A stretch of DNA of 64,000 nucleotides from positions 12,441,723 through 12,505,722 of the forward strand of contig CM119263.1 of the NCBI GenBank assembly GCA_051294375.1, read 5' to 3'. The notes under the pieces were generated by a model. The model was given only the letters and a program-made list of their open reading frames with translations, made no database searches and was not told where the DNA came from. This document shows positions 4,874-58,000 of this stretch, in pieces; position 1 is the first letter of the stretch, and every line of letters begins with the position of its first letter. This stretch comes from Paraspadella gotoi. Lineage: Eukaryota; Animalia; Chaetognatha. The translations under genes and the position numbers were made by a program.

Positions 4874-7800
4874 TTAATTGAGCATTGAGGGCGGAAACAT
4901 GCCAAGCTGAACAAAATCGTCCAGTATATCTACTAAGCTATTTTTGGTGAGTTCAGGTTTTTTATATTCGAAGCCCAGCTCCTCCATTTTTGAACCATCA
5001 AGATGAATAGGATAGTTGTTCAATAATTCTTCGTATAAGTAAGGGTTTAATGGGGTGTTGGAAAAGCCATCGTCTCGACATAACTTTTCGGAACAAAATT
5101 TGATTAATTTCATATAATCACATAATTGCGCTCCTCAGTTGAGACTAACCGTCGCCCAAGGCACCATGTGCTTGTCATTACATTCTTCTACGAAGCCCTG
5201 TAGATCTTTATTGGCAATATTAGATAATATAAAGCCAGCATAGCCATGAGTTATACCAAAAATTTCGGAAATCAAAGTTGTAACTTTCCCTTGCGTGGTG
5301 CAACCTTTGTCCACCATATGATAAACTTCAGCGACCTGGGTAAATCGTTTAAAATTTTTGAAATAAAAAATATATCAAATAAAAGTAAAACCTGCGCAAT
5401 ATTTTAGGTACTCTCCCTCAGCATCGACTACTGCCTGCATTCGTCTGGGCATGCTCTCGTACAGCGAATTGAAGTATGATGGTAAAATATTTTTTTTAAT
5501 TTTTAACAATAATTTTTTTAACCCTGCATTTTTAAAAAAAAAGTTACAATAACACCTTTATAAAATAATTAACTTAATTTAAAAAAGAAATAACTGAATA
5601 CCAAGAATGATAAAAAACTAAATACGATTTATTTCGCCATTTTTCACTTCACTTTTCACTTCATTTTTTGCCTGTAACTTTAAACCATTTGACCTATAAA
5701 AAATAGACAAAAACTACTAAAAAGAAATAAAAACTTTTTAATTTTTTTAGAATCAAACAAGTTTTTGAATAGATATCTTCCACTAAAAATATGATGTACT
5801 TTTTGCCTACTGTCCTGTGTAAAAAAAACGCGCGACTTTATAACTTTAAATTTTAAACGCTCTATAAAGATATTTTTAAAAATATATAAGTAAATAATTT
5901 AAAAAAAAAAGGAATCAATGTGTCTAAATTATATTAAGTCAAATGATTTAAGAGATATGATTTTTTAAACTTAGGTGTTCCAAAACCAAACGGGAAAATC
6001 GACTTATTAGCACAGCTTTCTTTTAACTAAAAAAACTAAAATGAAAAAAAAGCTATCATTGTGGTTGTAAAAAAGCTTTTAATATTCTGATTGCTCAAAC
6101 ACATATTCCAATGTCTCTATATGAAAGATGAGCCAAAATTTTAAACATTTCATTTTTTTTAATAAAAATATATCTTATAATTGAAAGGTCCTATTCAAAT
6201 ACAATTAAAAAAAAACAAAAAACATTAATGAGCATTAATTAACTAAAAAAGTAAGTAAGCTGGACTATTGGGAGTTAGAAAATAAAAAACGTCAGTAATT
6301 TTTTTACCAGAAAGCAAAATCTGAAAAAGCTAGATCAGATAATTTAACCACAGTATTGGATCATTTTATTTTATCCGTTTATTTATTATTTTTATTTATT
6401 TATTATTAAAATCCGTATAAAGCTTCAGAAACATGGACCTGTCTTTCATCATATGTTTTAATGACTTATAACTTTAAGATTATTATTTAAGATCTAGGGT
6501 AATCAAATTATCCAGCTATCACTCCGGATTAAGGCGTAGTGAAAGTTACATACGAAAATTCTAAAAGTCAATTATGAACAACATACCATCAGTGAACATT
6601 AATTTGTAAAAAAAATTAATTTTATGTTTTTTAATTTTCGCAGTAGGCTATATTTATATATAGTACTATCCTTATAAAATCGAAAAATTTTAAAATAGGC
6701 CTTTTTTAATTTTTATTGCAGATTTGAATTCCTCGTCAAAAGTTGATAAAAGAAAATATAAATCATTTTTAAAAATTTTTTCATTAAGTGGGTTAAAAAT
6801 TTAAAAAACTATATTTAATATATAAATTAAATAAATAAATTAATTTTCAGCTTAAAATATAGCTTTTTCTAATTTTTGACCCACTTAATGAAGCAATTTT
6901 TCAAAAAGAGTTATATTTCTTTTTACCAACTTTTTATGACGAATCCAAATCTATAAAAAAATCTTAGAAAAAACTGTTTTGAAATTTTAACATTTATTGG
7001 TTTAGTACTAGTATAAATATGGCCTACTGCGTAAATTGTAAAATTTATTATAAATTTTTTTATTACATAAATGTTCATTAGTATAATGTTGTTCGTTCCT
7101 CACTTTTAGAATTTTAATTAAAGTTAAATTTAAAAAAATTACTGCGCCTTACTCCGGATATTCAGTATTTGCAGTAAAGTACTTCATTTAAAAAATCATT
7201 GCTCCTAAATAAATGGCCCAATTTTAATAAAATTTATGCTAAAAAAATCATCTTTCAATAAACTTTAAATCGCTTTTAAATTTTTTTACAAATTCAAATA
7301 TATAAGGTGATTTTTAAAGTCTGAATCAATTTTTTTTTTTGCACAGGACCTGTAGATGGTATGATAAACTAATTTTTATTTTGAAATTCTAAAACGAGTA
7401 AAAACTGCAAAAATAAAAACCTTACGAGCCACAAGATTATTTCTTTTCTACTTTTGGTAATTGCTATACAGGTTACAATTGTATTTTTCCCTAAACTTAC
7501 TTGGCCATATTGAGAAAGATGCCAAAGTCCGCGGACGAGATCATCAACGTGTACTGTATTCAACATCAAATCCGCCGACCACAAAAGCTTCATCTTTTCA
7601 TTCAAATATTTATAAACGGCTCCCAAAACCTTAAGAAATTAATTATGACGAAAAGGTTTCTTCCAATGGGATGCAAATGTTTCTCACCATTCTTGGAGTA
7701 AGTCCGTAACGATCTGCCTTGCCATAAACAATCGCGGGTCGAACAATGATGTAATTTAAATTTTCTATTTTAGCTAGTTCGTTTTCAACCTGAAGACAAT

Positions 7801-10800: not shown

Positions 10801-13800
10801 TACGTAGAGAAGTTCATAATCACCAAGTTAAATCTTGTAAAGGTTAAAATTTTAAAAAAAAATTAAAAAACAAAAAAATAAAAAGTTTATTAACATAATG
10901 TCTTCCTCTCCAGGAAATCTTAAATTTTCGGAAATTCTTCAAGGATTTTCTTGGATGGAAAAAAGACGGGAATGACCCAACAACTGCTTCAAAAGTGAAT
11001 GCGTGTCGTGTTGCCAGCCAGTTCGTGGGCCTGGATGGAAAATAGAAAAGTTTCTTGGAGGACACTGCAATTGCGAGAAGGGCACGGGAGTCCTTGTTTG
11101 CTGTGACGCCGTGAGATCGATTTTTCTTTTCATGGGTTTAGATTCGACAAAGTATTGCCCTAAATTACGACACTGCAAAGTGTTTAATATGGCCAGCAGT
11201 GGTATGAATAAAAAATTTCAAAACTTTTTAAATTTAGATGATAGAACAATTTAATTATTCAAATGTAGGAGCTTGTGTTGAAATTGAGACGAGGCCATAG
11301 GGAAAGCGGCTCATGTGGTGGCCCTGTCCTTCCACCATAGTTATTACTCATAATCCTGACAAATCCAGGGGGATATTTGCAGGGAATTGATATGCATCGA
11401 CGCGGGCGGGGAAAAAAACACCCCACCCCAAAGCAAAGAAGTTTTAACTTGAAAACTTGATTTTTTTTTTGTCCCATAAAACTTTTTGTTATGAACGATC
11501 AATAATTATTTTAATTTTTAAAATTTGTCTTTGCCATTTTTTCTTGTAACAATTAAATTATTAAAAGGTATTGAATCTGTGATCTCAATTTTTTCGTTTT
11601 TAGGGAAAAGTTCAAGCCAATAACTTAACTTATCGGTTTAATATATTATTAAAAAATGCCTAATAACTGTTTGAGGTTGTTTTAAATTAGATTAAATATG
11701 TTCGGGTAACTTTTAAGTATAACCAAATAATTCAAATTTCATTCTTAATTTATAATTATCTGAAAATTTTTTTTGAAAAACTCAGAGAATCGTTAAAAAC
11801 AATTATTTTGATTGACCGTAGCAACTTTAAGCTCTGGGAAATGGCGAGATATTTAAGAAAAAAATGTACTTAAAAATGCTTTTATGTTTGTATAGCTCCT
11901 AAATACGAAAAGAATGGACACCCTTTTTCCGTAACTCTATGACAATTATTCAGCGGAAAAAAAATTTCTTAAAAGGATATCGTCGTAATCGCATAAGAAA
12001 AATCTGGATTGACGACAAATTTTGATACTGTGGCAGCAAGACTTAAAGCTGCCTCACTGCTGTCCGTCCTCAGCCTCGTCTCAATGGCTGAGCAGGCTAA
12101 ATCATCTCATTCCATCCGTGCGTCCCGGGTTCATCCCTGGGTATCCGGTTCTGGCTTAAATGTGACGGTGCCGGTATAAACATGCCAGTGACAGGAGGCG
12201 GTCACTGAGGGTCCGCAGCCCCTACGCCAGTTGGTGAATACCCCGCGCCCCGGGTATCACAGGCTATCCTCCCGTTGCCATAAGTGGTGAGCCCTACTCT
12301 CGAACACGCAACTGCTGCGCACCGTGCGCTCATGCTTACGTCGCTTAGGGTATGCATATCACGCCTATGCCCTACTTCTCTGGTAACGCTCCAGACTCGC
12401 TCGCCCGCTCGCTTCACTATGGCAATGAGATCAAAACCTTCTCTCAGACATCTCCTCAGGATTGAGGCCCCTGTGGAGAAGTCTGGTGGGGGATCCTGTG
12501 GCAGCAAGACTTAAAGCTGCCTCACTGCTGTCCGTCCTCAGCCTCGTCTCAATGGCTGAGCAGGCTAAATCATCTCATTCCATCCGTGCGTCACGGGTTC
12601 AATCCCTGGGTCTCGCCGGTTCTGGCTTAAATGTGACGGTGCCGGTATAAACATGCCAGTGACAGGAGGCGGTCACTGAGGGTCCGCAGCCCCTACGCCA
12701 GTTGTGTGAGATACCCCGCGCCCCGGGTATCACAGGCTATCCTCCCGTTGCCATAATACTAAAAATAATCAAATTTGAGCAAAGAAAATTAATTTATAAA
12801 CAGAAAGAAAAAGAAAAAAACAATAAACAAAGAAAGAATAGAAAGGAAAGAAAGAATAGAAAGGAAAGAAAGAATAGAAAGGAAAGAAAGAATAGAAAGG
12901 AAAGAAAGAATAGAAAGAAAAGAAAGAAAAATAAAAAGAGTAACGAGAAGAAAGAACGATGTTGCGATAACAAAATGATAACATGCACGAATGCGATGCC
13001 TAATTTTACGAGTTCAATCCCAATTCAATTTTTTTAATAAAAACGCAGAGAGAGAGAAGCCAAATCGTTTTTGGACGAATCAGCAGGAGAAAGAGAGAAA
13101 AAGAAAGAAAGCCCCTGCAGTGCCCAAGGAATCAGCGACTGGGGAAGGAGAGAGAGCTACATATAAGAGAAAAGAGAGAGAGAGAGAAAGAGACATAAAA
13201 ATAAAAGTAGAGCAAAATTGTTTATTTTGATAAACGTAAACAAAACGTATTTAATAAACGTCCTAACACAATTTCAAGGACCTCGATGATGAGAAGCTGT
13301 ATATAAATTTTCAGCTTCATATACCCAAATTTAATCTTCAAAAAGGCGATCTATAAATTAGAACGCCGACGACGACGACACTTATGTTCAAAAGCGTTAC
13401 GAGATCGTAGCAATCGCTTTGCGTTTGCGAGGATAACAAAAAACAAGAACGCTCTTTCCAATGTGTCGCAGTAACTTTCTTACTTATTTCCATGTGATTA
13501 CATTATAATATAATTATAAAACATATAACTTATCTGCAGTTTTAACTAAAATGACTAATTATTATACAAAATATATATTATTTTTTAATACATAACCGTA
13601 GTTTTACGAAATAACGTGACTAAATAAGTAAAACATTAATAAATGCTTTTTGTACGTTTCTTATTAATTTATTAAATATAAATTAAAATTTAATATTTTA
13701 TGAATAATATAGTATAAATTTTTAGTTTATATACATACTAAAAATACCTTTTTACTAAATATAAATTTAATAAAATATTATTAAAATTATAAACATTTAA

Positions 13801-14532
13801 AACGCAAATAAGGTAAAGCAGTAAACAAGCATACCGACCGACCAAAAAGTAAGTTATAGTTACTCCGCGAGTACGCAAGAAGACTTAGTAGGCAACGGAC
13901 TGGCTGACCTTGTAAACGGAGTCGTCTTGGCCAGGACGCGTCTCCCCTGCGCAGTTAAAGACGAAATCCCAGGTCTCTCCTTCCTCGATAAGGGATTCCA
14001 CGGCTTTCGCGTTTATCAAATTGGTAGAGACGAACTCAACTTTGCTTTAACGGGGAGCAAGCGAAAAACATTCAAAACTCTTGATTGATGCTCCTATTCA
14101 AGGTCATAATAGTTTTACACTCTATAATCTATACTTAAAATGCTGACAGAAGATAGAAATTAAGAGACATTAATTGTACGGAATACGTGATAATACCGTT
14201 CAATATAAGCAGTAAAGTGCACTACCAAACTGCAAATAACAATTATTCAAACTCCTTACATAAATTTTTAATTTCATTTTATTTGTCAGTGCTCCGAATT
14301 ACCCCTTTCATAATTAGCCGGCACTACCCTACGGCCAGGGTAAATCAGTACAAAGGAGTGTCACTTACCCTATAGCGCGTTTGGCCTCCTCGTTCATCCA
14401 ACTCAGTTCGGGGGGAACTTTATCCACGACTTTGACTCGGGAACAGAGATTATTGCTTGTGAGATACTGAACCAAATGTCTTCCTATAAAACCCGTACCT
14501 CCGAAAATCAGACACGTCGGTCTTTCAGACAT
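4874..14532 (-). CDS. NAD-dependent epimerase/dehydratase (extended SDR) family protein, multi-exon
   Basis: Exon 1 MSERPTCLIFGGTGFIGRHLV (GxxGxxG); WDFVFNCAGET (~13905-14045); RFIEISSG; IIVRPAIVYG; NTVHVDDLVRG; C-terminal exon 4874-5060. Two large repeat-filled introns. Confidence 0.82.
5399..5482 (-). pseudogene. Tc1/mariner transposase C-terminal relic
   Basis: Translates to PSYFNSLYESMPRRMQAVVDAEGEYLKY, matching the Tc1 C-terminal SMPRRxxAVIxAxGxxTKY motif. Confidence 0.8.
5810..7354. mobile_element. Tc1-type non-autonomous element (related copy ~42808-44276)
   Basis: TA-flanked imperfect TIRs CTGTCCTGTGTAAAAAAA / TTTTTTTGCACAGGACCTG; same ends in the TRAM1 intron; contains a nested long-IR MITE ~6520-7160 (related copy ~54680-55070). 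Confidence 0.55.
8430..11963. mobile_element. Degenerate ~3.5-kb TIR DNA transposon, superfamily not identified
   Basis: Imperfect ~60-bp terminal inverted repeats (TTTTCCGCAGAAAAT..AAAAGGTGTCATTCTTTCGTATTT vs AAATACGAAAAGAATGGACACCCTTTT..TTATTCAGCGGAAAA); interior has decayed coding-like composition. Confidence 0.55.
12151..12230 (+). ncRNA. Putative twister ribozyme, type P5 (5' LTR, copy 1)
   Basis: P5 CTGGC/GCCAG; P2 ATGT/ACAT; GA-CGG; P1 TGCC-GGTA; T^AA; GC; P3 CAGTGAC/GTCACTG; A; P4 GGG/CCC closing loop TCCGCAGC; pseudoknots CGG:CCG and GC:GC. Predicted cut between 12177 and 12178. Confidence 0.8.
12622..12701 (+). ncRNA. Putative twister ribozyme, type P5 (3' LTR, copy 1)
   Basis: Identical 80 nt to 12151-12230; predicted cut between 12648 and 12649. 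Confidence 0.8.
12830..12917. repeat. 18-bp tandem repeat AAGAAAGAATAGAAAGGA
   Basis: About 5 units inside the family A element. Confidence 0.9.
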
Positions 14533-16859: not shown

Positions 16860-18971
16860 TCATTTTTCCTCCAAAATTCGGTCAACGTAATGGTAGAGCA
16901 CAAACTCTCCGATTTTTTTTCCGTCTTTATCGTAATGGTACATCAGTAGACATTTGTCGCAGTAGAAGCAAGGATCGTCAGGGTCTCTCGGAGAGTCAGA
17001 CGTCATCCATGCGGCGGTGAAAGTATTACATGCCCTGCAGGGAATTCGCACCGGACGCAAGTGGTTGACGACGACGGGGTATCGAGATCGGTCGAAACAG
17101 TCGTCGGCGTGCAAAAGTCGGGCATCAGTGAATACAAACAAATGTTCGCAGTTTCCCTAAAATATAAGAATATAGACACTATCAGCTACGAAAAAATTAG
17201 ACAACAAAAAATGCAGACATAAGACTTCGCAGTGCTAAACTTAAAAAAAATCATATGCTTTTGACAACATTAACGTATCTTTCCCCCCTCAAGGAATTTG
17301 TTTCCTTCCAGGTTTTTTTTTTATATGAATAAAACCCCTCAACTCGCCTGATGAATGTAGACGTAAGGTTGACCTAAACGGATGGTGAGATCAATAAACC
17401 GAGTTTCGGTCATGTCGGCCTTCTTGAAATCGTTCATTTTCTTTCGCTTCGCCCAATCAATGATGTTTTGGCTGTAATCGATCGAAGTAACAGCGCGAAA
17501 GTCATTGTAGAAAGTTTCTTCAATAAAGAAACAACCCGAGGGGTAGAGGTCGCGATTGTGATGATCCTTGGGAAGGTTAGGATCCGACGAAAAATCACCA
17601 GGACACACATAATCGATTTGACACTGAAACCGATCGCGAAGTTCGTGGAGGTACTGTATTAAAACAAGCAGTTAAAAATAACCGGAGACCACGAATGAGT
17701 ACCTAAAAGTATAACATCAATAACCCACCTGTGTGGACAAGACGTTGTACGAACTGTCGGTCCTCATCTTGTGAAAGAAGTTGTCGCTGGTTTTCTTTTG
17801 GCGAAACTTAAAATTTCTGTATAAAGGAAGACAGGAAGTGAAAACTCCGAACGCTTAACTCCGCCTTCAAAATGCATTCATTTAAACCTTAACATGGTGA
17901 CAGTAAGAACGACCTCCGGAGCTTCCACGCGGTTCTCAAGTTCCTCTGGAAGTGGCAGCGATGAGAAATAATTGTATAACTTGGAATCTGGGTACCGAGT
18001 CATACCGCTCCAATTCTGAGAAAAATATATACATAAATATATACCCAGAGCAGCGAAACATTATTTATGAGCCGCCTACAAGGACTTACGAATTTATCCT
18101 TAAGTTTTTTCCGGCTTTTCAGTTTAAGAAACTGCGACGTCTTAAGATTGTTTTCCGGAATTTCCTGTAGCCAGTCCATTTGCTCGTGGTACATGTCATC
18201 ACCACCTAGTGATTTGTCACCCGTCACTGCTGTTAATTCTTCTAAGACATCGTCCGAAATTCCAGTCTTACGCTGTTGTTGACAGAAGTTGTTAGTGACA
18301 GAAATTGTTAGTGACAGAACCGTTCAATATAAGCAGTCCCTGAGTTTCGGATCAGGCTGTAACACCGTGTTACAGGCGGGTTAAGCGCCCCGTCCCTCTT
18401 AACTGCAAGGCTATTACCGGGCTAGAACCCCGGACCTTTGGGTTGGGAGGCGAATGACTTGCTTCCGGCACCAATGGCCGCTGAATAACGGTTGGTGGAT
18501 TTAAGTCCTCCATAGTAGTATTGGTGATTAACATCGTTTTATGAGGAAAACGCATATTATTTTTATTTGAGCAATATATTTCGGTTAACATCGCTTAACC
18601 ATAGTTCATTTGCGTTCATTAAGCGATGTTAACCGAAATATATTGCTCAAATAAAAATAATATGCGTTTTCCTCATAAAACGATGTTAATCACCAATACT
18701 ATGTACTCATACCGCATATACGATGACTCTCAAGCAATCCATAGTAGTATGAAATCTGATGCAAAACAGGCATCAACATCATTCAAAAAATCATAAAAAC
18801 ACATCCAACCTGAATGTAGGCCTCTTCGGTCTCCTCTACTATCTTGGTGGGAAGAAAAGCTTCTGAATCCGTTGTTCCCATTTGGAATCCCCAGTCGGAC
18901 ATAATGTCTTTAATATTGACAGGATCCGATATTCCGACGAAAACGCAATCGTCAGTTTTCGACAACGCCAT
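16860..18971 (-). CDS. SNAPC3: snRNA-activating protein complex subunit 3 (SNAP50)
   Basis: DLYPSGCFFIEETFYNDFR..DYSQNIIDWA..RFIDLTIRLGQPYVYIHQ|GNCEHLFVFTD..CRAC..PDDPCFYCDKCLLMYHYDKDGKK (zf-SNAP50_C-like); the ATG at 18971 is inferred. Confidence 0.9.
18290..18510 (-). mobile_element. Diverged tRNA-head plus twister-like element (solo-LTR or SINE relic) in SNAPC3 intron 1
   Basis: Minus strand: GACTTAAA (shared with the LTR 5' part), A-box-like TGGTGCCGGAAG, B box GGTTCTAGCCC, a degenerate P5-twister fold at 18406-18333, then TTCTGTCACTAACAA tandem units. Confidence 0.6.
18516..18701. repeat. Perfect 83-bp inverted repeat with 20-bp spacer
   Basis: Arms 18516-18598 and 18619-18701 are exact reverse complements. 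Confidence 0.95.
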
Positions 18972-30900: not shown

Positions 30901-33900
30901 TCACTTGCGGAGCTTAAAGTTCCCTTGCTAATACGAATATTTCCGAAGAATTCGGTTCGACTGGATTTCGGGTTTTACGATATTGACTCTTGAAAAGTTT
31001 GTTTGTTAATTCCTAAAAAATATTGTCAAAACAGCAAGATATCTCGTTAGGTTAAAAAAAAAATCTAGCTCACGCACGAACCACAGCGTCGGTGTGGTAG
31101 GCCGTCCACAACTTGAAGAGAAGTATTCCGCCCGGCTTGAGAAAGTGACGCGCGAGGGAAAAAGCGGATTTTGTTGCCAAGGTGACAAGATTGAACTGTT
31201 GTAATCGTGGTTTTCTCTAGTGTCAATCGCCGGGTGGCTGTTGGAGCTCATCTTAAAAGCATAAGGATCGTCGCAATTGCATAAGAAAAATCTGGATTGA
31301 CGACAAATTTTGATACTAAAAAAAATCAATTTAAAAAAAAAAAATTTATAAACAAAAAAGAAAAAGAAAAACCAAGTGGATCAATAATAATAATAATATT
31401 AAAAATTTTACCCGATAAAGCAATTAGGCATTCTGAAAAAAAAGTCAAACAAAAACAAGCAACTATTTAATATATATAGTACCTGCGAATACTTCTTTGT
31501 TCCTCCCGCTCCGGGAGCCTCCGTAGCATTGCAGCGCGTAACGCGTAGAATAGTGTTTGGCCGGATTTCATCGTTGTCAACGACTTGATTGTAAGTACTG
31601 TTCAGCATCGCGCTGGAAAGGTTGATAAAAAATATTGACGCTATGAAAAAAGCCCTCAATGTTTTTCTGTTAAGAAACAGAATACATACAGAATGCTTCT
31701 ACTTATATTATATTATAAACTTATGCTCGCCCGTTTTATCGATCAGAAAATCGTTTTCGACCAAATTACTGATCCAAATGCAATGAAATTTCGTATAACG
31801 TATCGTATTGGCTATAGAAATTGGAATATCGAGGAGATTTTTAAAATTCCACCAAAAGCCGAGATATGGGCTCCGAAGTTGTCAGCATGGCGGAAAGTGG
31901 CATAATTTAAAAAAAAAGGGGAAAAAATCCAGTTGGAACAGTTGCAGGAATGTTTGCTTGCTCATAAAAAAATATTTTAGCTTTATTTGCATGTCATGTC
32001 AGCTTTCATGTGGCGAGCAAAAATTCGAGGTAAAATGATGGATCATGCATGTTTCAAGAAAAAAATTCCTACAGTTAATAAAAATTGGTTTTTTAAAGAG
32101 CTTTCTTTTTTTTTACAAACGTTTGAACGTAAATGATCAAGAAAAAAAATTTTCGTTAATTTTATGCCCCTATGGCCCTGTATCTCGGCTCAGGGGTAAA
32201 CAAAAAAAGAGTCGATAATCCCATTTGGTTTAATAGTTGGACGAGAAGTCATTCTCGATCAACAAACTCGGGAGAACATTTTCTAATATTAACTTATGTA
32301 TTTGACTTAGCCACAATATTATATAATATATATATCCTACTTAGAAGAAGAGTGAACGCCGTCATGCATAAGAACTCTGTATCTGCCATTGACGTTCTTG
32401 CAGGCTGTAACTTGGATGACGAATTCACGACCGTCATAGTTGCCAGTACACAACTCCGCGACAATGCCTGGAGTCAATCGCGGTTCCATCAGTCTTACAA
32501 AAGAAAATTTAAAGCAAACGAACTGAGCAAAAATAGAAAACATAACAATACAAATAATCAAAAACTTTATAATTATATGTCGACTTTTTCTATGAGCGAG
32601 GGAGAATCTTCAATGATTTTACTGCTTTCTTGCGTATCGTCAAGGGGTTCCGGGTCTTGCCAATTCGTTGCTCACCAGCTACATCTACAGCTACAGTCTC
32701 GTCTATCTCGATGGGAATGTGAGCGATCAGATCATTCCGAATCGATTCTGGGGTCTTCGACATTATCTCTCGCTTTTTCCTCTTTTCTAGTCTCACTCTC
32801 TTGTCAAACTCTTTTCGTTTGACTAAATCACTAAGAAGGGTCTCGTCGTCTTCTGGCAATTCCGTTTTCCTAGTTCGTTTTTTCGTCTTCACTCCTCTTT
32901 CGATCCTCTCTGATCTACGCTCAAAGGTCCCTCCGAGTCGTTTGGCGCTTGATACCCGACGATGCAGTCATCAATTACGTCGCGAGATAGAAGAACGAAG
33001 AAGGCGGGAAGAACATCATTTCTTAGTTGGTTAACAGGCTCGGTAGTGGCCTGGTTAACTTGATAAAGGTCCCGAACCAGCTTCTTCGTCAACTCGGCAC
33101 AGGCGATCACTTTAGATACAGCGTCGCCACGTCCTTTCCAAAGGATTTGGTGAACCGATGAATCGGCCAGGCGATTCACCGCATACTAAAAATAATTTTT
33201 GTATAAAATTATATGAAATCCTTGGACAAGAAAGAAAAATTTTCCACCTAATAATTCGACAACCGAATATTACGTGAATTCGAGTTCTTGCCTTGACTAG
33301 GGATTTGACATTACTCTTTTCCTTGACGTTCATAACGAGGGCGTTGGGGCTGAGACATTCTACGGGAGTTAACATCTCCGTCATGGCATTTCACTGGTTA
33401 AACGGATTGAAAATAAAAAACTAGAGAAGCTACTTGATTAAATAAAACGGGTCTAATAATTCGTTCTATATCTCCATAACCTAAACAACAATAGGATTTA
33501 CATTCGTAACTTAGCTAGAAACTGCTAAAATTGAATTTTTAATTAATGTTTACAATTTTTACATATTTGTAGAGCAGAGGAGCACGTTTTTCATCGACCC
33601 CATAATGGATGAGCAATCTCAATAAAACTTATCGGGGAAGAAAAGCGGTAAAATTTCATAAAACAAGATCCATCCATCCATTGTGTTGCGCCGCAGTGAC
33701 TTTATTTCATGTGTATTTCTCGTAACATGACATGAGGCGATATGACTACAACTTCCTTAGCCTGTATATTTATGACACGCACTGCCTAGAAATTCCGTCT
33801 TTTATTCTTTAAAGTTTTAGGATTTCCTAAAGGGGGCGCTAGCAGTCCCTTAGATTTGAAGTTTTTTTCTGTCTTAACAAATGAACATCAATAAACAAAT

Positions 33901-36863
33901 TATGTGCATTTTTAACGTTAGTGGGACAGACCGACGAACAGACATACCGACCGACAAGTAATTTATAGAGTTGCTCCGCTAGTACTCGCGGCGCAACTAA
34001 AAAAATTTAAGATGAAACTACAAGATTTTGGAATATAACCAATTCTGTAAGAAAAGTTAGTTCTTCAATTCACGTCTAAATTGACTTCGTGTATTATTTC
34101 GATGGTTAGCAGATTAGCAAATTTGAGGAGATAGTATTGGAGGAATGTGTTGTCTAGTTAAGTAACAAAAATGCGTCGTTACTTAACGCCGAATTCTGAA
34201 AACAGCACAATACATACATTTACCATTTGTAAAAAGAATGGAAGCTAATGATTTTAACAAATGATGTATCTGAAAAAAACAAGTGATCCATTTTTCAATT
34301 ATTTCGTCAGATCTGGTCTTACGCCAACGGCTTTTGGAATAAAAACCTTGGCGTACTATTATTCAGCAACTTATCTAAAATGACTAGATATCTCCGAATG
34401 CATAAAATTAATCTGGTTTACAATCCTAAAATGATATGACCGCGTTATTGATTTTAAAAGTTTCTTTTCGTACATTATTCACTTGACCTAATTAAAATCG
34501 AAATCTTCCAAGGGATTTCAAAATTTCTAGAAAGGATCGCCGAGATATGACACTCAAAAAAAATTAACGAGTGTTCCCACAACACTAAAATTCCAGCGTG
34601 CTCATTTCGATTTTTTGTTTTTGATCTGCTGTTGGTCGGCTTCCGGCAAATCATCATATTCCTTCTTTTTGAGGTTCTTGAGCGAGACGTTGGCCGAACG
34701 CAGACCTGTTTTCTTCTTGCTCGAAAATTCTACGCTGTACTCTCGACGACGCCGGAGATGAAAAGTGATAAAGGTCCACATCAGCTTCGCCTAAAAATTA
34801 GAAAAAGTAGTAAACCAGTTAGAATCTTGTGGAGTTCTTCACAATAAAAAATAAAACCCAAAAATACCTGCATCAGACAAATAGCCGTTAGGCAGTTGAT
34901 CCTAATAATTTGAATGTTGTAATTTCCTTCGGCCGTGTTAAGCGTTCCGGCGCTCGGGGACAGCGGGAGCCCATACCAAAAAGTGAGGATAGCCAGAGTG
35001 AAAGACAGAAACCGCGCAATGACGAAGAGGGTGTTGTACCCATAAAAGACGAACTTGGCGACCGTGGGCTGCTCAGCAAAATACAGGAGTCGCCCGACGT
35101 GGCGAAACGCCTCAACCAAATATTGGGAGAGCAACAGGCAGAGCGTGATCCGAGAGAAGTTAAGAGCGTAACCCACTACGGTAAAGATCAGGTAGAAAGC
35201 GGCGTATTGCACTCGGGAAGACAATTCGTCCTTCTTCACTTTCTGGAAGTAAAGTTCTGGGAAACAGTGCAGCCAGTAGGCGAATTTGAATGATGAAGAA
35301 GAACTTGGATACGAAAGGCATGGAGACGTGCTCGGTAGGGTAGCCAACCCAAAGATTAGACAGGTCCCAAACGAGATGCTCCGACAACATGATGTCTACA
35401 CCCCAAACGATAGAAACCAAGTAAAAGACAATCAACTGTCCGGATTCGTTAAATTTGGAATGCTTCAGTTTGGAAAGGTGCATCCGGCGGTTGATTTTAT
35501 CTGCAGCAAAGGAGGAAAAGTTAGTAACTGTGCAAAAAAAAAGGGCGCCACTTTATAACTTTAAATTCCAAACACTAAAAAAATATTTTTTTAAATTATA
35601 GAAAAAATAAATTTTAAAAAAAATTTATGTATATATTATATACATAAATTTTTTTTAAATTTATTTTTTCTATAATTTAAAAAAATATTTTTTTTAGTGT
35701 TTGGAATTTAAAGTTATATAAACTATTACTATCCTTCCGGTATATATATATATATTATATATATTTTTATATTGGTTGTACCAATTTCATAAAAGTCAGC
35801 TCCTTGTATTTTGATGCTAGTGCGGAGTACAATAAGTATTCCCCGATCTAATACTTAAGGGAGTGGTTCTTTTCATACAATTGAAACATTCTTTGAAATA
35901 TTTTCACTTCATTGATAGGAAGCCAGGTACTCTGGGAGTGAATAAATGGGACTGTGAGAGAGTCTTGGTTGAAAAGCTTGCAGGGACCTGCTATGTAATT
36001 ATCTTGTAAAGTGATGGAGGCCTTAAACCACCAAAAGCCTGTCCAAAGTCAGGGGCAAGATAGCTTATTTATTAAATGAATGGATAATTTTTATTTTGGT
36101 TGTACCAATTTCATATATATATATTTTATTTTTAATCTATTACGCCACTTATGCGCAAAAGTGTTACAATATCGTCGCAAACACTTAGCGATTGCGACGA
36201 GAAAAACTTCTTCAGAAATTTACCCTCTGAGGAAAATGTTTATAACTTAGCAACTATCCTAGCTAGAATGTTACGAATTGATGGGAAAAAAGTCAAATAT
36301 ATTTTTATTAGTACAAAAAAATTTTACAAACCGAATGCTCTTCGTTTCGATTATATTACAAGTTTTTTCGTATCACTCCAGGTTGAAGTCCCTATATAAA
36401 CTAGAGAAAACCTCCCTAAGACTAAGTATTGAAAATCTTGACACACAAATTGTGTGTCACAATACCTCCACTTCCCACTTCCGAGGTCGTTGACCTTCTT
36501 GTTACATTTTTCCTGGTTGCACGCTGGGTAGAGCGCGTTGTCTTTTTTCGTGAACACAACGCTTGCTTTAACAGAGTAGTAATCAGGTTTCTCTCCACGG
36601 CCAAGTTTTTCTAGAGTCGTCTGCTTGAAGCACTTCCAGTTAGAACCGATATCGCCGTCTTTGCGTGAGGAGCCCGTCGACAAAGAAGAGAAATCTTGGG
36701 CGTGAACTCCTTCGTTCTCCCACCAACCTCTTAAATTAAAAACGCAAGAATGAACAAGAGTAATACAATTTACTTCATCATACACGTACGTGCATACCTA
36801 CATACATAATACATATTGCACTTTTATTATTAGAGTTAAAACAGGGACAAAATTAGCGATGTT

Positions 36864-36902
<39 letters not shown>

Positions 36903-39767
36903 ATTTTTGCAAACAAATATTTAATAATATAATATATTTGAATTTGGTCGCTAACCCTAATTGAATCAAATATGAAACAACTTTAAAATTAAAATAAAAA
37001 TTAACTTTTAAAATAAAATAATAACTTTAGGTTAACCAACCTAATGATATAAATTTTAAAAAAGAATAACAGTTTTTAAATCAACTTATTAGAAGCTATA
37101 CAAATCTGCCATATAAAATAATATAATATAATAAAATAAAATATTTAAAAATTCAGTTTTTTTAGGATAAAGGGCAGTTTTAAAACCATGCACTTTATAA
37201 ATATTCGGCCTTGAAAACTAGCCCTCACAATTGAAAAACTCACGACGGGTTTGCAAATGGCAGTTTCTTTCTAGCGGCGGGTTTTAAATTGTCACCATGT
37301 ACTTTATGTACGAGAGTATTTAAGAATAAGTTGAATATATTGTTCACACACCAATTTAAAGAAATAATTTTCTGGATCAGCAGAGGTTTCTAAACTACAT
37401 AGAAAATATTACTTAACAACCTGAGTTGGTTAACTTCGTCTATCTCTGGATCATCTAGGAACAACTTGGAACTTTGAAGGGTCGACAAATTCTTGCCTTG
37501 AAAATCACCAATCCTGACGCCGCGCGCAGCCAAAACTACAGAACGGTTAAGCTCCGACGGAAAGTCAATTGCCTAGTTTAAGTAGAAAAAAGAGGCCATA
37601 ACTGAAAATATTATATCCTAAATAATCGAAGGAACGAAAATTTAACAAAATTAAATGACAAACTAGTATTGGTATAATTGTATGAAACAAACTTACCTGC
37701 TGTCCCCAAAGTGTAAGGCTGACCATCTTTTTACTGCGGTCAACGATCTGTAAATCACGCTTCGTCAATTCACGCGAATCTTTTCGTGAGATTAAAGTTG
37801 CGACTTCTCCGCAAAGCTTGACAACACCTAATACATGCATAAATAAGATGTCAGCCCACTATAGGTTCAACAAAATTATAAATCCTAATAAGTTTCCAAT
37901 TACCCACGACATCGATGACCTCTCCAACATCGATGGTCTCTATTTCGGAAATGCTCCGGAAATCGAAACGAATTTTAGGTAAGTCTCGATCGTCTTCGCA
38001 TAACTCGACAATCGACTCCCGCTGAAGGGTCAATTCGTATTGGGCATCCGTTTTGTTGAAGCTAAAACGATTGCCGTTACAGAACGAGTAAAGTAAAGAC
38101 CAGAATCCGAGCTTTCCTTTCAATTCTCACCGAGAGTCCTTGGGTTTGAGCGTTCCTTTTTGAATGTAGTAGACCTTTCCCTCTTTAATAACGTCAAAAA
38201 ATTTAGTGCATTCCTCTTTGAAGGCGGTAACCTTCATTGTACTCGACTCATCTTGTATCTCAAAGGAAAAGAGCGTTCCTTCGCCCCGGGCGTTGCTCCA
38301 AGTTCTCTTGTCGTTCTTTACGACGACCCGAGCTTTGATCATCCATTTGTTCTGATATGGATTCAGCGCTTTGATGGGATGAACGTTAGGACGAGCGTGA
38401 CCATTGTTGTTTTCTTTGGATGGTCTGGGAGGCGGCGGTTTAGCTGCGGTGTTAGTTGTCCGCGGGGCCATATAGTCGGAGCGGGGAGCGACAGGTTCCC
38501 TGGCCGATGGATTAGCCGGTGTTGACGATGCATTATCGGCGGAATCTGCAAATTTTGTCGGATTTCCGATGCGAGATTCACATTGCTTTAAGATCTCCAC
38601 CTCGACGAGTACTGCGGGGCGGGCAGAGGAAAAAAGAAAAAGAAAAACCAAGTGGATCAATAATAATAATAATATTAAAAATTTTACCCGATAAAGCAAT
38701 TAGGCATTCTGAAAAAAAAGTCAAACAAAAACAAGCAACTATTTAATATATATAGTACCTGCGAAATACTTCTTTGTTCCTCCCGCTCCGGGAGCCTCCG
38801 TAGCATTGCAGCGCGTAACGCGTAGAATAGTGTTTGGCCGGATTTCATCGTTGTCAACGACTTGATTGTAAGTACTGTTCAGCATCGCGCTGGAAAGGTT
38901 GATAAAAAATATTGACGCTATGAAAAAAGCCCTCAATGTTTTTCTGTTAAGAAACAGAATACATACAGAATGCTTCTACTTATATTATATTATAAACTTA
39001 TGCTCGCCCGTTTTATCGATCAGAAAATCGTTTTCGACCAAATTACTGATCCAAATGCAATGAAATTTCGTATAACGTATCGTATTGGCTATAGAAATTG
39101 GAATATCGAGGAGATTTTTAAAATTCCACCAAAAGCCGAGATATGGGCTCCGAAGTTGTCAGCATGGCGGAAAGTGGCATAATTTAAAAAAAAGGGGAAA
39201 AAATCCCAGTTGGAACAGTTGCAGGAATGTTTGCTTGCTCATAAAAAATATTTTAGCTTTATTTGCATGTCATGTCAGCTTTCATGTGGCGAGCAAAAAT
39301 TCGAGGTAAAATGATGGATCATGCATGTTTCAAGAAAAAAAATTCCTACAGTTAATAAAAATTGGTTTTTAAAGAGCTTTCTTTTTTTTTTACAAACGTT
39401 TGAACGTAAATGATCAAGAAAAAAAATTTTCGTTAATTTTATGCCCCTATGGCCCTGTATCTCGGCTCAGGGGTAAAACAAAAAAAGAGTCGATAATCCC
39501 ATTTGGTTTAATAGTTGGACGAGAAGTCATTCTCGATCAACAAACTCGGGAGAACATTTTCTAATATTAACTTATGTATTTGACTTAGCCACAATATTAT
39601 ATAATATATATATCCTACTTAGAAGAAGAGTGAACGCCGTCATGCATAAGAACTCTGTATCTGCCATTGACGTTCTTGCAGGCTGTAACTTGGATGACGA
39701 ATTCACGACCGTCATAGTTGCCAGTACACAACTCCGCGACAATGCCTGGAGTCAATCGCGGTTCCAT
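27980..39767 (-). CDS. RPA1: Replication protein A 70 kDa subunit (~10 exons; 8-kb intron at ~28497-36473)
   Basis: MEPRLTPG..RYRVLMHDG; HPIKALNPYQNKWMIKARV..WSNARGEGTLFSFEIQDES; LTKRDLQIVDRS..LTLWG; YPACNQEKCNKKV..WR|CEKC; VNLADFSDNCWATLF; ETYNDEARLK; TGA at 27980. Confidence 0.93.
29370..31250 (+). repeat. Insertion-riddled copy of ~25190-26886 (DNLZ intron and exon 1, MRM2 3' end)
   Basis: Colinear with the source but peppered with 1-2-bp insertions; DNLZ frame broken (ORF 30505-30753). Confidence 0.9.
32573..33384 (-). pseudogene. Frameshifted duplicate of the RPP25/Alba gene within the duplicated block
   Basis: Near-identical to 39851-40665, but the ORF is split (32889-33179, 32590-32892) by single-base indels; may be consensus error. 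Confidence 0.5.
34602..35502 (-). pseudogene. Partial duplicate of TRAM1 3' exons (no 5' exons, 1-bp insertion near 35283)
   Basis: Near-identical to 41883-42782; the reading frame is split into ORFs 35160-35483 and 34781-35347. Confidence 0.5.
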
Positions 39768-39850
39768 CAGTCTTACAAAAGAAAATTTAAAGCAAACGAA
39801 CTGAGCAAAAATAGAAAACATAACAATACAAATAATCAAAAACTTTATAA

Positions 39851-40665
39851 TTATATGTCGACTTTTTCTATGAGCGAGGGAGAATCTTCAATGATTTTAC
39901 TGCTTTCTTGCGTATCGTCAAGGGGTTCCGGGGTCTTGCCAATTCGTTGCTCACCAGCTACATCTACAGCTACAGTCTCGTCTATCTCGATGGGAATGTG
40001 AGCGATCAGATCATTCCGAATCGATTCTGGGGTCTTCGACATTATCTCTCGCTTTTTCCTCTTTTCTAGTCTCACTCTCTTGTCAAACTCTTTTCGTTTG
40101 ACTAAATCACTAAGAAGGGTCTCGTCGTCTTCTGGCAATTCCGTTTTCCTAGTTCGTTTTTTCGTCTTCACTCCTCTTTCGATCCTCTCTGATCTACGCT
40201 CAAAGAGTCCCTCCGAGTCGTTTGGCGCTTGATACCCGACGATGCAGTCATCAATTACGTCGCGAGATAGAAGAACGAAGAAGGCGGGAAGAACATCATT
40301 TCTTAGTTGGTTAACAGGCTCGGTAGTGGCCTGGTTAACTTGATAAAGGTCCCGAACCAGCTTCTTCGTCAACTCGGCACAGGCGATCACTTTAGATACA
40401 GCGTCGCCACGTCCTTTCCAAAGGATTTGGTGAACCGATGAATCGGCCAGGCGATTCACCGCATACTAAAAATAATTTTTTGTATAAAATTATATGAAAT
40501 CCTTGGACAAGAAAGAAAAATTTTCCACCTAATAATTCGACAACCGAATATTACGTGAATTCGAGTTCTTGCCTTGACTAGGGATTTGACATTACTCTTT
40601 TCCTTGACGTTCATAACGAGGGCGTTGGGGCTGAGACATTCTACGGGAGTTAACATCTCCGTCAT
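39851..40665 (-). CDS. RPP25: Alba-domain RNase P/MRP subunit p25-like protein
   Basis: MNVKEKSNVKSLVK|YAVNRL..ILWKGRGDAVSKVIACAELTKK..LYQV..LPAFFVLLSRD..GYQAP (Alba/Rpp25 pattern) with a basic/acidic tail. Confidence 0.8.
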
Positions 40666-41882
40666 GGCATTTCACTGGTTAAACGGATTGAAAATAAAAA
40701 ACTAGAGAAGCTACTTGATTAAATAAAACGGGTCTAATAATTCGTTCTATATCTCCATAACCTAAACAACAATAGGATTTACATTCGTAACTTAGCTAGA
40801 AACTGCTAAAATTGAATTTTTAATTAATGTTTACAATTTTTACATATTTGTAGAGCAGAGGAGCACGTTTTTCATCGACCCCATAATGGATGAGCAATCT
40901 CAATAAAACTTATCGGGGAAGAAAAGCGGTAAAATTTCATAAAACAAGATCCATCCATCCATTGTGTTGCGCCGCAGTGACTTTATTTTCATGTGTATTT
41001 CTCGTAACATGACATGAGGCGATATGACTACAACTTCCTTAGCCTGTATATTTATGACACGCACTGCCTAGAAATTCCGTCTTTTATTCTTTAAAGTTTT
41101 AGGATTTCCTAAAGGGGGCGCTAGCAGTCCCTTAGATTTGAAGTTTTTTTCTGTCTTAACAAATGAACATCAATAAACAAATTATGTGCATTTTTAACGT
41201 TAGTGGGACAGACCGACGAACAGACATACCGACCGACAAGTAATTTATAGAGTTGCTCCGCTAGTACTCGCGGCGCAACTAAAAAAATTTAAGATGAAAC
41301 TACAAGATTTTGGAATATAACCAATTCTGTAAGAAAAGTTAGTTCTTCAATTCACGTCTAAATTGACTTCGTGTATTATTTCGATGGTTAGCAGATTAGC
41401 AAATTTGAGGAGATAGTATTGGAGGAATGTGTTGTCTAGTTAAGTAACAAAAATGCGTCGTTACTTAACGCCGAATTCTGAAAACAGCACAATACATACA
41501 TTTACCATTTGTAAAAAGAATGGAAGCTAATGATTTTAACAATGATGTATCTGAAAAAACAAGTGATCCATTTTTCAATTATTTCGTCAGATCTGGTCTT
41601 ACGCCAACGGCTTTTGGAATAAAAACCTTGGCGTACTATTATTCAGCAACTTATCTAAAATGACTAGATATCTCCGAATGCATAAAATTAATCTGGTTTA
41701 CAATCCTAAAATGATATGACCGCGTTATTGATTTTAAAAGTTTCTTTTCGTACATTATTCACTTGACCTAATTAAAATCGAAATCTTCCAAGGGATTTCA
41801 AAATTTCTAGAAAGGATCGCCGAGATATGACACTCAAAAAAAATTAACGAGTGTTCACCACAACACTAAAATTCCAGCGTGC

Positions 41883-44904
<3,022 letters not shown>

Positions 44905-55000: not shown

Positions 55001-58000
55001 AAAACTATTTTGAAATTTTGACATTATATAAGGGTAGTACTATATACAAAATAAGCTGACTGGGCTACTATATTTATAAAAAAAGAAAAATAACTATAGA
55101 TTAGTATTCATTAATATAATAGTTTTCAAGATATAACTGCTAAATTTTGATTCCAAACTTTCACTTCACCCTACTGGACAGGCTATATTCTTGGTTATAG
55201 CCTCCATCCTTCTTACAGCATGCAAACTTTCAACTCACTGAGTACCTGGCTTCTCAATAAATGAAATGAAATATTATTTTCATTCTATTGTACAAAAGGA
55301 CCACTCCTTTTTAATGTTGTTTTAAGTTTGATATTACATTTTTTAAATAATCAAGTTTGTAACCCATTAAAGACTCCCAAGATAACAATAAACAGTAATG
55401 AAAAGAGATAACTTTACCCCACCTCTCAAAAAACTCTTCCACAGAGATGCCTTGACGATTAGTCACGTGGAGAGGGTAAAAGACTTCTAAAATTTTACTG
55501 GAATGTGCAAGGGTGAGCTTGAGGTCTCTGGCGGGCATTCTTATCTTTTCTTTGACAACGTCGTCCAGACCCAATTGTAATTTCTTTTTTCGACTCTCGA
55601 TCTTCGCGTGAAGTTGCATGTTCAATTTTCTGAATTAAAAAAAAAATTCAAAATTGAGTTTATGAAAAAGATACAATACAATACCAAAACAAATACCATA
55701 TTTATTATGTAAGGTATATGTAAAAGGCTGGTTTCATAGGGCGACAGAGGTAGTAGGCTGGTTCAGATACTATCTAGGAAAAAAGTATATAACATAATTA
55801 AATTTATTCAATAAAAAGTATACAAAATATGGGTAAAACATTTTCAATATTTGGTATGCCTTTCCTCGGCATCAACTACTGCCTACATTTGTCTGGGTAT
55901 GCTCTCATATAGCAAATTGAGGTATGACAGTGAAATATTTTTCAACATCTTTAACACAATTCTTTTCAAACCCAATATTGATGTTACATGTTTTTACATT
56001 TTTAAAAGGTATAATAGCATTTTTTTGAACCAAAAAGAGGTATAAAGGCTTTAGCATTGCCAAATTAAAAAAATAACTTTATTTAAAATAAAAATAAATA
56101 ACTAAAAATAAAAATTAAATATAATTTTTTTCGCCATTTTTTATTTGAAGTAACAATATTTTTTAGCCTGTAACTTCTAAACGATTTGACCGACAAAAAA
56201 ATAGAAGGAAGCTACTGAAAACAAATTCAATATAAATCCGGAAATATTCTAATTTTTTTAAAATCAAACAAGTTTTCGAATAGATATCTTTTATTAAAAA
56301 TGTTATATACTTTTTTCCTAGATAGTAGTTCAGAGCTATGGCCTAGTAGCAGCATAATTGTTTCTACACGATAACTTCAGGTCTCGAACCAGGAACGCAT
56401 GGTGCTGTTGCGCTGCGAAAATTACAGCCTTAATACTTTTGCATTGAAATATCCACCAGAACGTAATACATGTATATATAATATAGAGTTACATTTAATA
56501 TTATGTACCATCTAAGCAAAAGAATATAACGAATAAGTGAGGATAACTTTGAAAAAATTATTTGTTTAAAAAAAAAATTTAATTACATTAAATTAAACTA
56601 TATCTTAATTTCAAATTAACTTTACTTTTTTTTGGTCAAAGAGTTATAATGATAACTTGATAATCAAAGAAAGGTACTTGGATATTACAAAAAGTATCAA
56701 AAAAAAAAAAAAAAATAACAATTCTAAAAAAAAAAATTACCAGAAGAGTATTTAGCCTGATGTCCAATTCTCCTCTTCCTTTTCTTCTTCTTTCCTCCTC
56801 CTCCTGCCCCTCAGTATATTTTGTCTAGCGATACATTCTCTCGTTTCTACTCTTCGCGAAATATACCATTATTTTCCCTCCATTTCTTCACACCTTCAAT
56901 ACCCCTCAAGATTACATAAAATAAAAGTTAAAAAAAATAAAAATTTATAATTATTATTGTCTCTTCGGAGGCGTGGATTCAAATCTCACGGCTGATACCA
57001 CAGGGATTTCTCGGCGATTCTTATGAAAACAGACAAAATAGACAGTTGTGGCAGCAAGACTTAAACCTGCCTCACTGCTGTCCGTCCTCAGCCTCGTCTC
57101 AATGGCTGAGCAGGCTACATCATCTCATTCCATCCGTGCGTCCGGGTTCAATCCCTGGGTATCCCGGTTCTGGCTTAAATGTGACGGTGCCGGTATAAAC
57201 ATGCCAGTGACAGGAGGCGGTCACTGAGGGTCCGCAGCCCCTACGCCAGTTGGTGAGATACCCGCGCCCCGGGTATCACAGGCTATCCTCCCGTTGCCAT
57301 AAGTGGTGAGTCCTACTCTCGAACACGCAACCGCTGCGCACCGTGCGCCCACGCTTACGTCGCTTAGGGTATGCATATCACGCCTATGCCCTACTTCTCT
57401 GGTAACGCTCCAGACTCGCTCGCTCGCTCGCCGCTCGCTCTCACTATGGCAATGAGATCAAAACCTTCTCTCAGACATCTCCTCAGGATTGAGGCCCCTG
57501 TGGAGAAGTCTGGTGGGGGATCCTGTGGCAGCAAGACTTAAAGCTGCCTCACTGCTGTCCGTCCTCAGCCTCGTCTCAATGGCTGAGCAGGCTAAATCAT
57601 CTCATTCCATCCATGCGTCCCGGGTTCAATCCCTGGGTATCCGGTTCTGGCTTAAATGTGACGGTGCCGGTATAAACATGCCAGTGACAGGAGGCGGTCA
57701 CTGAGGGTCCGCAGCCCCTACGCCAGTTGGTGAGATACCCCGCGCCCCGGGTATCACAGGCTATCCTCCCGTTGCCATACAGTGTCAATTTTGAGGCAGA
57801 GTGAAATCAGACAGAAACGTTGGCTATTTAGTATTTATACAATTTGAATCGGATCCGAGGTAAGAGCATTCTCCGCAGGCAGATGGAAGCCAGTGCCATC
57901 ATTGGCCGGTGTCATTGGTGGTTCGACCAATGAGAGAGTCGTTTATTAAACTTCTTATTTTGCTCATATTTTCTGAACGGTTTCCGCTAAGAGCGTAGGA

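Follow-up and report, generated by a model that had tools for sequence, protein, structure and literature searches.

The question raised by this locus is how a twister ribozyme with only eight nucleotides at its P1 position could form this helix, and with which partner. In the window (the whole stretch of 64,000 nucleotides from the chaetognath Paraspadella gotoi that was analyzed), positions 12164-12183 read GACGG, TGCCGGTA, TAA, and ACAT, and a sequence-only reading had described the eight nucleotides between GACGG and TAA as self-complementary with G-U pairs. This description was borne out: TGCCGGTA (12169..12176, plus strand), located where a type-P5 twister fold has its P1, is self-complementary over its whole length, with U-A, G-U, C-G, and C-G pairs and no loop, and is identical in all four LTR copies of the window. 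Sequence comparison and folding models both favor a P1 that probably forms in trans between the two LTR ribozymes, and this part of the earlier proposal stands; its claim that the two must dimerize to cut goes too far, given that P1 is dispensable in published twisters.

A non-coding LTR element with a twister fold in each LTR

The segment lies in E1 (12029..12755, plus strand), a non-coding LTR retroelement of TRIM- or retrozyme-like type that spans 727 bp with 57% GC, ends in TG...TA, and is flanked by the 4-bp TSD ATAC (12025-12028 and 12756-12759). Its 5′ LTR (12029..12282, plus strand, 254 bp) and 3′ LTR (12497..12755, plus strand, 259 bp) are 97% identical and enclose an internal region (12283..12496) in which a PBS-like site that begins with TGG (12285-12299) and a purine-rich stretch resembling a PPT (12485-12493) stand at the expected places, with no tRNA gene in the window as a primer match. 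The longest ATG ORFs are 51 and 60 aa, and none exceeds 60 aa. A second copy, E2 (57047..57779, plus strand, 733 bp, TSD CAGT), is 96.6% identical to E1. In the predicted fold, the LTR end and PBS-like site (12270-12295) pair with internal positions 12400-12430, which could mask the PBS or prime copying. A neighboring TRAM1 gene, whose best matches among named proteins come from molluscs at 57-59% identity, points to an invertebrate host.

Each LTR also carries Pol III-type boxes a short way upstream of its ribozyme, which lie at 12085-12096 (A box) and 12128-12137 (B box) in the E1 5′ LTR and at 12553-12564 (A box) and 12596-12606 (B box) in the E1 3′ LTR; the B box is one base short in the E1 5′ LTR and complete in the remaining three LTRs of E1 and E2. 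A pattern built on the Pol III A/B box consensus at tRNA spacing matched three places in the 64-kb window, all of them inside LTRs. With regard to a tRNA origin of these boxes, Rfam returned no tRNA match, and ARAGORN at default settings reported no tRNA gene in the window. TTTT is absent from the element, which is not significant (P = 0.33). Contigs from sequencing runs indicate that the family is multi-copy, with junction and internal contigs exceeding flank-anchored ones in depth roughly 100-fold (an approximate ratio, not a copy number), and the junction of the predicted circle has the sequence of the LTR.

The twister fold of the E1 5′ LTR (12151..12230, plus strand) comprises P5 (12151-55/12226-30), P2 (12160-63/12180-83), GACGG (12164-68), T2 (12184-85), P3 (12186-92/12201-07), P4 (12209-11/12220-22), and L4 (12212-19), with a predicted cut between 12177 and 12178. 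The UAA of the cut site (12177-12179) and the GA (12164-12165), which hold the catalytic A and G in L1, are present, and so are both pseudoknots (T1 CGG/CCG and T2 GC/GC), which covary across twister classes (UGG/CCA with AC/GU in a third class of the window; GGG/CCC in phage). By sequence, P2 has 4 bp, P4 has 3 bp, and P5 has 5 bp, P2 and P4 forming in models only as a two-copy fold. The E1 3′ LTR twister (12622-12701, plus strand) has its P1 at 12640-12647 and its predicted cut between 12648 and 12649, giving a predicted cut-to-cut unit of 471 nt; the E2 twisters (57170-57249 and 57647-57726, plus strand; P1 57188-57195 and 57665-57672) give a predicted unit of 477 nt. With element order, UAA, GA, both pseudoknots, P2, and P4, the fold resembles type-P5 twisters (RF02684) and phage examples, from which it differs by its CGG/CCG T1 and by a loop-less P1 (6-8 nt across the window, against hairpins of 15-26 nt). 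The stable closed P1 hairpin of type-P5 is absent, and this does not exclude activity because P1 has been reported as dispensable. Also in contrast to RF02684, the usually conserved L4 A that takes part in the trans A-A pair is replaced by C, which twisters are reported to tolerate (PMC11662667), and the Rfam twister models gave no match to 12029-12300 at E ≤ 10. Overall, element order, cut site, catalytic G, and both pseudoknots fit a type-P5 twister that would be expected to cleave.

Known systems share parts of this architecture. Like the LTR retrozymes of plants, E1 and E2 are non-coding, with a ribozyme in each LTR, a 4-bp TSD, PBS- and PPT-like ends, and GC above 55%, and unlike them they carry a twister rather than a type III hammerhead, reside in an animal host, have Pol III-type boxes, and yield a predicted unit well short of the roughly 700 nt in plants (PMC4918200). 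The ribozymes of plant LTR retrozymes cut from a single-LTR construct (PMC4918200), and LTR retrozymes have been described as plant hammerhead elements (PMC4918200, PMC7229834, PMC7761336, bioRxiv 10.64898/2026.07.22.740005). With Helenus/TRIMp3, the elements share the format of an animal TRIM below 1 kb and a 4-bp TSD, and their Pol III-type boxes resemble the tRNA-type A and B boxes of Helenus LTRs; in contrast to E1/E2, the sections of that report drawn on here describe no ribozyme in Helenus, and a search of its supplement for twister motifs gave two matches, neither in a twister context, in a text where line breaks can hide matches (PMC10886601). The T-variant twisters of Schistosoma Perere-3 likewise have a degraded P1 and are borne by a retroelement, and unlike E1/E2 they are type-P1 twisters at the 5′ end of a non-LTR element whose P1 is completed by the target site; the sections consulted mention neither dimers nor palindromes for them (PMC8501958). 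Full-text literature searches, whose reach ended at subscription journals, returned no natural dimeric twister (a dimer in the rice twister crystal is regarded as an artefact; PMC5408937), no LTR-borne twister, and no animal LTR retrozyme, and the consulted parts of PMC10085705 and bioRxiv 10.1101/2022.07.19.500677 added nothing on dimeric twisters.

Palindromic P1 segments in three twister classes

A twister descriptor that left P1 free at 0-30 nt, written after the sequences had been seen, found seven sites in the window belonging to three sequence classes, with TGCCGGTA (four sites), AGGCCT (two), or GGCGCT (one) at P1. All three descriptor-found classes have a loop-less palindromic P1 of 6-8 nt, their cores differ (CCGG, GGCC, and GCGC), and the classes further differ in T1, T2, P2, and P4. 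In 20 shuffled windows the descriptor gave 38 matches (about two per window), none of which had a palindromic P1. A single palindrome is weak evidence, as 192 of the 1,680 orderings of the TGCCGGTA letters (11%) are palindromic; given composition, the joint chance for the three classes is 0.114 × 0.133 × 0.40 = 0.006. A looser descriptor was rejected, its extra matches lying at background level (26 versus 8-21 in shuffles), and MAFFT produced no useful alignment of the twister classes.

The GGCGCT palindrome had also been pointed out in the earlier reading and was confirmed at 18389-18384 (minus strand), in the P1 of a decayed type-P5 twister of a separate class (18333..18406, minus strand) whose T2 is unpaired. 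Directly before it lies a tRNA-like head (about 18479-18408, minus strand), detected by ARAGORN at a relaxed threshold only, at which spurious matches occur too; tRNA-like head and decayed twister (18479-18333) together form a SINE-like promoter-plus-ribozyme unit, whose 3′ end recurs at 14187-14213 and downstream of which lie exons that, from their translation, we take to resemble SNAPC3. Inverted-repeat elements resembling MITEs or DNA transposons were observed at 60368-61861, 18516-18701, 6555-7115, and 53208-54109, and an Rfam MIR9563 match (53361-53475) is probably the hairpin of one such element.

The third class, which is without P3, was found at 36001..36059 (plus strand; P1 AGGCCT at 36018-36023, T1 UGG/CCA, T2 AC/GU), with a copy at 43284..43341 (plus strand; P1 AGGCCT at 43301-43306) in a 7.28-kb duplication, both being weak Rfam Twister-P5 matches under the gathering score (E = 0.36 and E = 0.32, respectively). 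Direct repeats of 29 bp, spaced 324 bp apart, delimit the unit of this class (35763-36115 and 43032-43424), which resembles slightly more than a full turn around a circular RNA and is a candidate twister-bearing non-LTR retrozyme. A decayed copy (55195..55208, minus strand), missed by the descriptor, has AGGCTA with a mismatched outer pair at the P1 position (55203-55198), and an insert of roughly 600 bp splits its ribozyme; this AT-rich insertion (54560-55170) contains inverted repeats and has a short duplicated stretch on either side. The near-identical duplicated regions (about 31500-38700 and 38765-43400) contain TRAM1-like, Alba, and RPA1-like coding stretches and represent either a recent duplication or an assembly artefact. 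The relic and third classes are not in LTR elements and have one ribozyme per unit, without a partner in cis.

These single-ribozyme units, together with the 11% chance of one palindrome, fit the most credible of the alternatives, which we nevertheless regard as unlikely, namely that the twister of each LTR cuts on its own, the eight bases serving as a short tether or as a 2-bp stem with a tetraloop and the palindrome being a by-product of a shrunken hairpin. A cis geometry of 2 bp or 1 bp with a tetraloop is possible, a twister without P1 cuts at near wild-type rate, and the P1 of the env22 crystal has only two Watson-Crick pairs (PMC5408937). Likewise, P1 imperfections were without effect in a survey of about 2,600 twister candidates, the main text of which, in the parts consulted, contains no data on a tethered type-P5 P1 (PMC11662667). 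Against cutting by single copies stand the three different self-complementary cores of the three classes and the comparison with solitary prokaryotic type-P5 twisters, none of which was found in our scans with a P1 below 12 nt.

In this comparison, a type-P5 scan of viral contigs gave 46 loci, from which 23 distinct P1s passed a P2 filter (4/4 pairs, or 3/4 with P1 above 10 nt) that dropped six sequence types (L169, L177, L182, L188, L194, and L195, the last with a non-palindromic 8-nt spacer) and alternative registers in two loci. All 23 phage P1s are hairpins of 15-26 nt (−8.3 to −22.9 kcal/mol), and loop-less palindromes number 0/23. A genome scan for P1s of 2-13 nt yielded eight loci (one plausible at 12 nt, four chance type-P1 twisters, and three unconvincing), and a viral scan aimed at short P1s with P2 fixed yielded 10 loci with one plausible at 14 nt, the patterns of these scans covering the commonest T1 and P4 only and the comparison set being prokaryotic and viral. 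The shortest plausible P1s of this set, L210:701 (minus strand, 12 nt) and L214:301 (14 nt), have similar 6-nt loops. A loose pattern in viral contigs gave 120 chance matches, in none of which P2 and P4 occurred together, and even-length spacers of 4-10 nt were palindromic in 2 of 41. One metagenome scan (35 loci) contained no family members and no convincing twisters, and both loci of a type-P3 scan were unconvincing. By sequence comparison, the short P1 of the LTR twister is unusual, lying far below any phage type-P5 P1 found.

Variation within the family, obtained from summed contig depth in four runs and reported here for the 40 of 52 variants listed, also argues against cutting by each copy alone, in that it affects the pair of the cis stem while the nucleotides that would form the loop are spared. 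The most variable ribozyme sites listed (run X1) are those of the outer P1 pair, which is the pair that a cis hairpin requires (12169 T>A at 11.8%; 12176 A>C at 5.8% and A>T at 2.3%), while 12170 G>A (1.7%) turns G-U into A-U. In the CCGG core, the maximum among the variants listed is 1.2% (12172 C>T), with none listed at 12173-12175, and this conservation partly reflects age since most copies are young. Elsewhere in the ribozyme, the listed family variants at or above 1% preserve pairs or lie in loops. Summed depth at each site points to a possible subfamily whose outer P1 pair is mismatched; it would have no cis stem and a 6-bp duplex of −8.9 kcal/mol. One related copy has a different perfect palindrome, GACCGGTC, and the palindrome is broken in three decayed relatives in all, comprising the AGGCTA copy and two diverged relatives, one carrying C>A at 12171 and the other having the 12-nt segment GAACGGTTTACG. 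A genomic relative in runs X8 and X9 that covers 12179-12232 only starts one base past the predicted cut; this single case may represent the insertion of cleaved RNA.

Predicted folds of one and two ribozyme copies

The folding models ignore both pseudoknots, which could rescue the cis fold and to that extent leave room for cutting by single copies. Within the models, TGCCGGTA as a cis hairpin would have 2 bp and a CCGG tetraloop at +5.0 kcal/mol, and its self-duplex is predicted at −10.9 kcal/mol, with an estimated Kd of about 40 nM for the P1 duplex alone. In a lone LTR ribozyme, the predicted probability of P2 is 0.01, against 0.36-0.99 (median 0.96) in 23 phage twisters, and a competing 5-bp hairpin across the cut site (12173-12186) has a probability of 0.66-0.92. 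Folding two ribozyme copies without constraint yields the swapped twister secondary structure as the fold of minimum energy. Two-LTR transcripts gave a cross-LTR P1 probability of 0.15-0.37 over eight start choices, with cis P2 at or below 0.001, and in full transcripts the computed advantage of the swapped scaffold over two cis scaffolds is 7.6 and 6.7 kcal/mol. The swapped scaffold lies 8-12 kcal/mol above the free ensemble, and both scaffold types together range from 8 to 19 kcal/mol above it.

When the P1 letters were reordered in the two-LTR transcript, a predicted cross-P2 of at least 0.3 was reached by 1 of the 45 orders that are not palindromic and by 4 of the 25 that are (natural value, 0.33), and in two-copy folding the natural swapped-P2 value was matched by 50 of 250 reorderings and the energy gain by 13 of 250. 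Phage monomers gain 3-17 kcal/mol in two-copy folding, and the dimer-minus-monomer energy was rejected as evidence because they gain as much. Swapped P2 is not predicted to form in the relic and third classes (0.01 and 0.00), and in a circular unit with one palindrome the modeled P2 probability is at or below 0.001.

Taken together, the palindromic P1s in three classes, the contrast with phage, and the folding models make a swapped double twister the best reading, to which we assign a probability of roughly 0.6: TGCCGGTA would pair with its twin in the other LTR, and cleavage would be favored in the dimer over either copy alone. Each active site of this swapped structure would combine P5, a P2 strand, and GACGG from the 5′ half of one ribozyme with UAA, P2, T2, P3, and P4 from the 3′ half of its partner, a single 8-bp duplex holding the two copies together.

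Dimer-dependent cleavage is known for viroid hammerheads, and the E1 ribozyme differs from dimeric hammerheads in being a twister, whose shrunken helix, P1, is dispensable in published examples. Hammerhead stem III, unlike twister P1, is not known to be dispensable. Among retroelements, dimer-dependent cleavage is likewise known for hammerheads (PMC7229834), and the sequence-only reading had cited minimal hammerheads with a palindromic stem as working in dimers; those with 1 bp and a palindromic tetraloop cut much better in that form (PMC7229834, PMC6765202). E1 resembles the minimal, dimeric type I hammerheads found in Penelope-like elements and in the non-LTR retrozymes of amphibians, whose cut-site helix has 1-2 bp and a palindromic tetraloop (PMC7229834, PMC6765202, PMC7761336). 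It shares with them the two copies per transcript, and by analogy a weak monomer and a stronger dimer would be expected here.

A stricter form of dimerization, in which two-LTR transcripts alone are cut and single LTRs stay silent, appears improbable, although cis P2 is predicted at or below 0.001 in both single-LTR and full-length folds and the hairpin competes over the cut site. Its hammerhead analogues from axolotl, with 1 or 2 bp and a tetraloop, retain monomer cleavage of 6% and 22% in an hour (PMC7229834), and P1 is not needed for catalysis in published twisters; moreover, at the estimated Kd separate transcripts could pair via P1. On these grounds, the statements that solo LTRs are silent and that only full-length transcripts are processed were overstated, and the dimer is probably an accelerator and a switch rather than an absolute requirement, with a P1 duplex between two separate RNAs also a possibility.

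Retroviral kissing loops are dimer-linkage signals, and G/C-rich palindromes of 6-8 nt are typical of them. It is highly improbable that the palindrome is such a signal for helper packaging or reverse transcription, unrelated to catalysis, or that the twisters are inactive: the palindrome type and the absent Rfam match would fit, but a palindrome occupies the same P1 position in two non-LTR twister classes, the catalytic G, UAA, T1, and T2 are intact, and listed variants at or above 1% elsewhere in the ribozyme keep pairs or hit loops.

A proposed route from a two-LTR transcript to a circular RNA

The element, its LTRs and TSDs, the twister core, and the palindromes are read from sequence, and the misfolding and swapped preference are computed; the steps that would follow are inferred. 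Pol III transcription from the 5′ LTR boxes would read through both ribozymes, both U-A sites would be cut, and a piece of 471-477 nt would be released. A host ligase, as shown for hammerhead retrozymes (PMC7229834), could close this unit to a circle, which would bear one palindrome and could serve as a template for the reverse transcriptase of a helper LTR element. Such a circle would be expected to resist re-cutting because it has only one palindrome and P2 does not form in the models. The likelier purpose of the palindromic P1 is the joint cutting at both ends together with a circle that resists re-cutting.

At somewhat short of even odds, and thus tentatively, we propose that a natural domain-swapped double twister, having evolved in parallel with the double hammerhead, occurs in at least three unrelated retroelement types of this genome. 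On this view, E1 and E2 would represent the first animal LTR retrozyme and a Helenus-type element driven by Pol III, in which the double twister would control the making of circular RNA, efficient cutting being limited to two-LTR transcripts and the circle not reopening. E1 and E2 unite features known from separate systems, namely the LTR retrozyme format of plants, where the ribozyme is a hammerhead, the tRNA-type promoter of the ribozyme-less Helenus TRIMs, and the twisters of non-LTR elements. Because Rfam misses twisters with a short P1, the class may be widespread and overlooked, and the dimer idea is testable on an RNA of 80 nt. If true, it would provide a function for P1, a helix thought dispensable, and dimer-dependent cleavage by a second, unrelated ribozyme would point to a general solution for a circle that spares itself.
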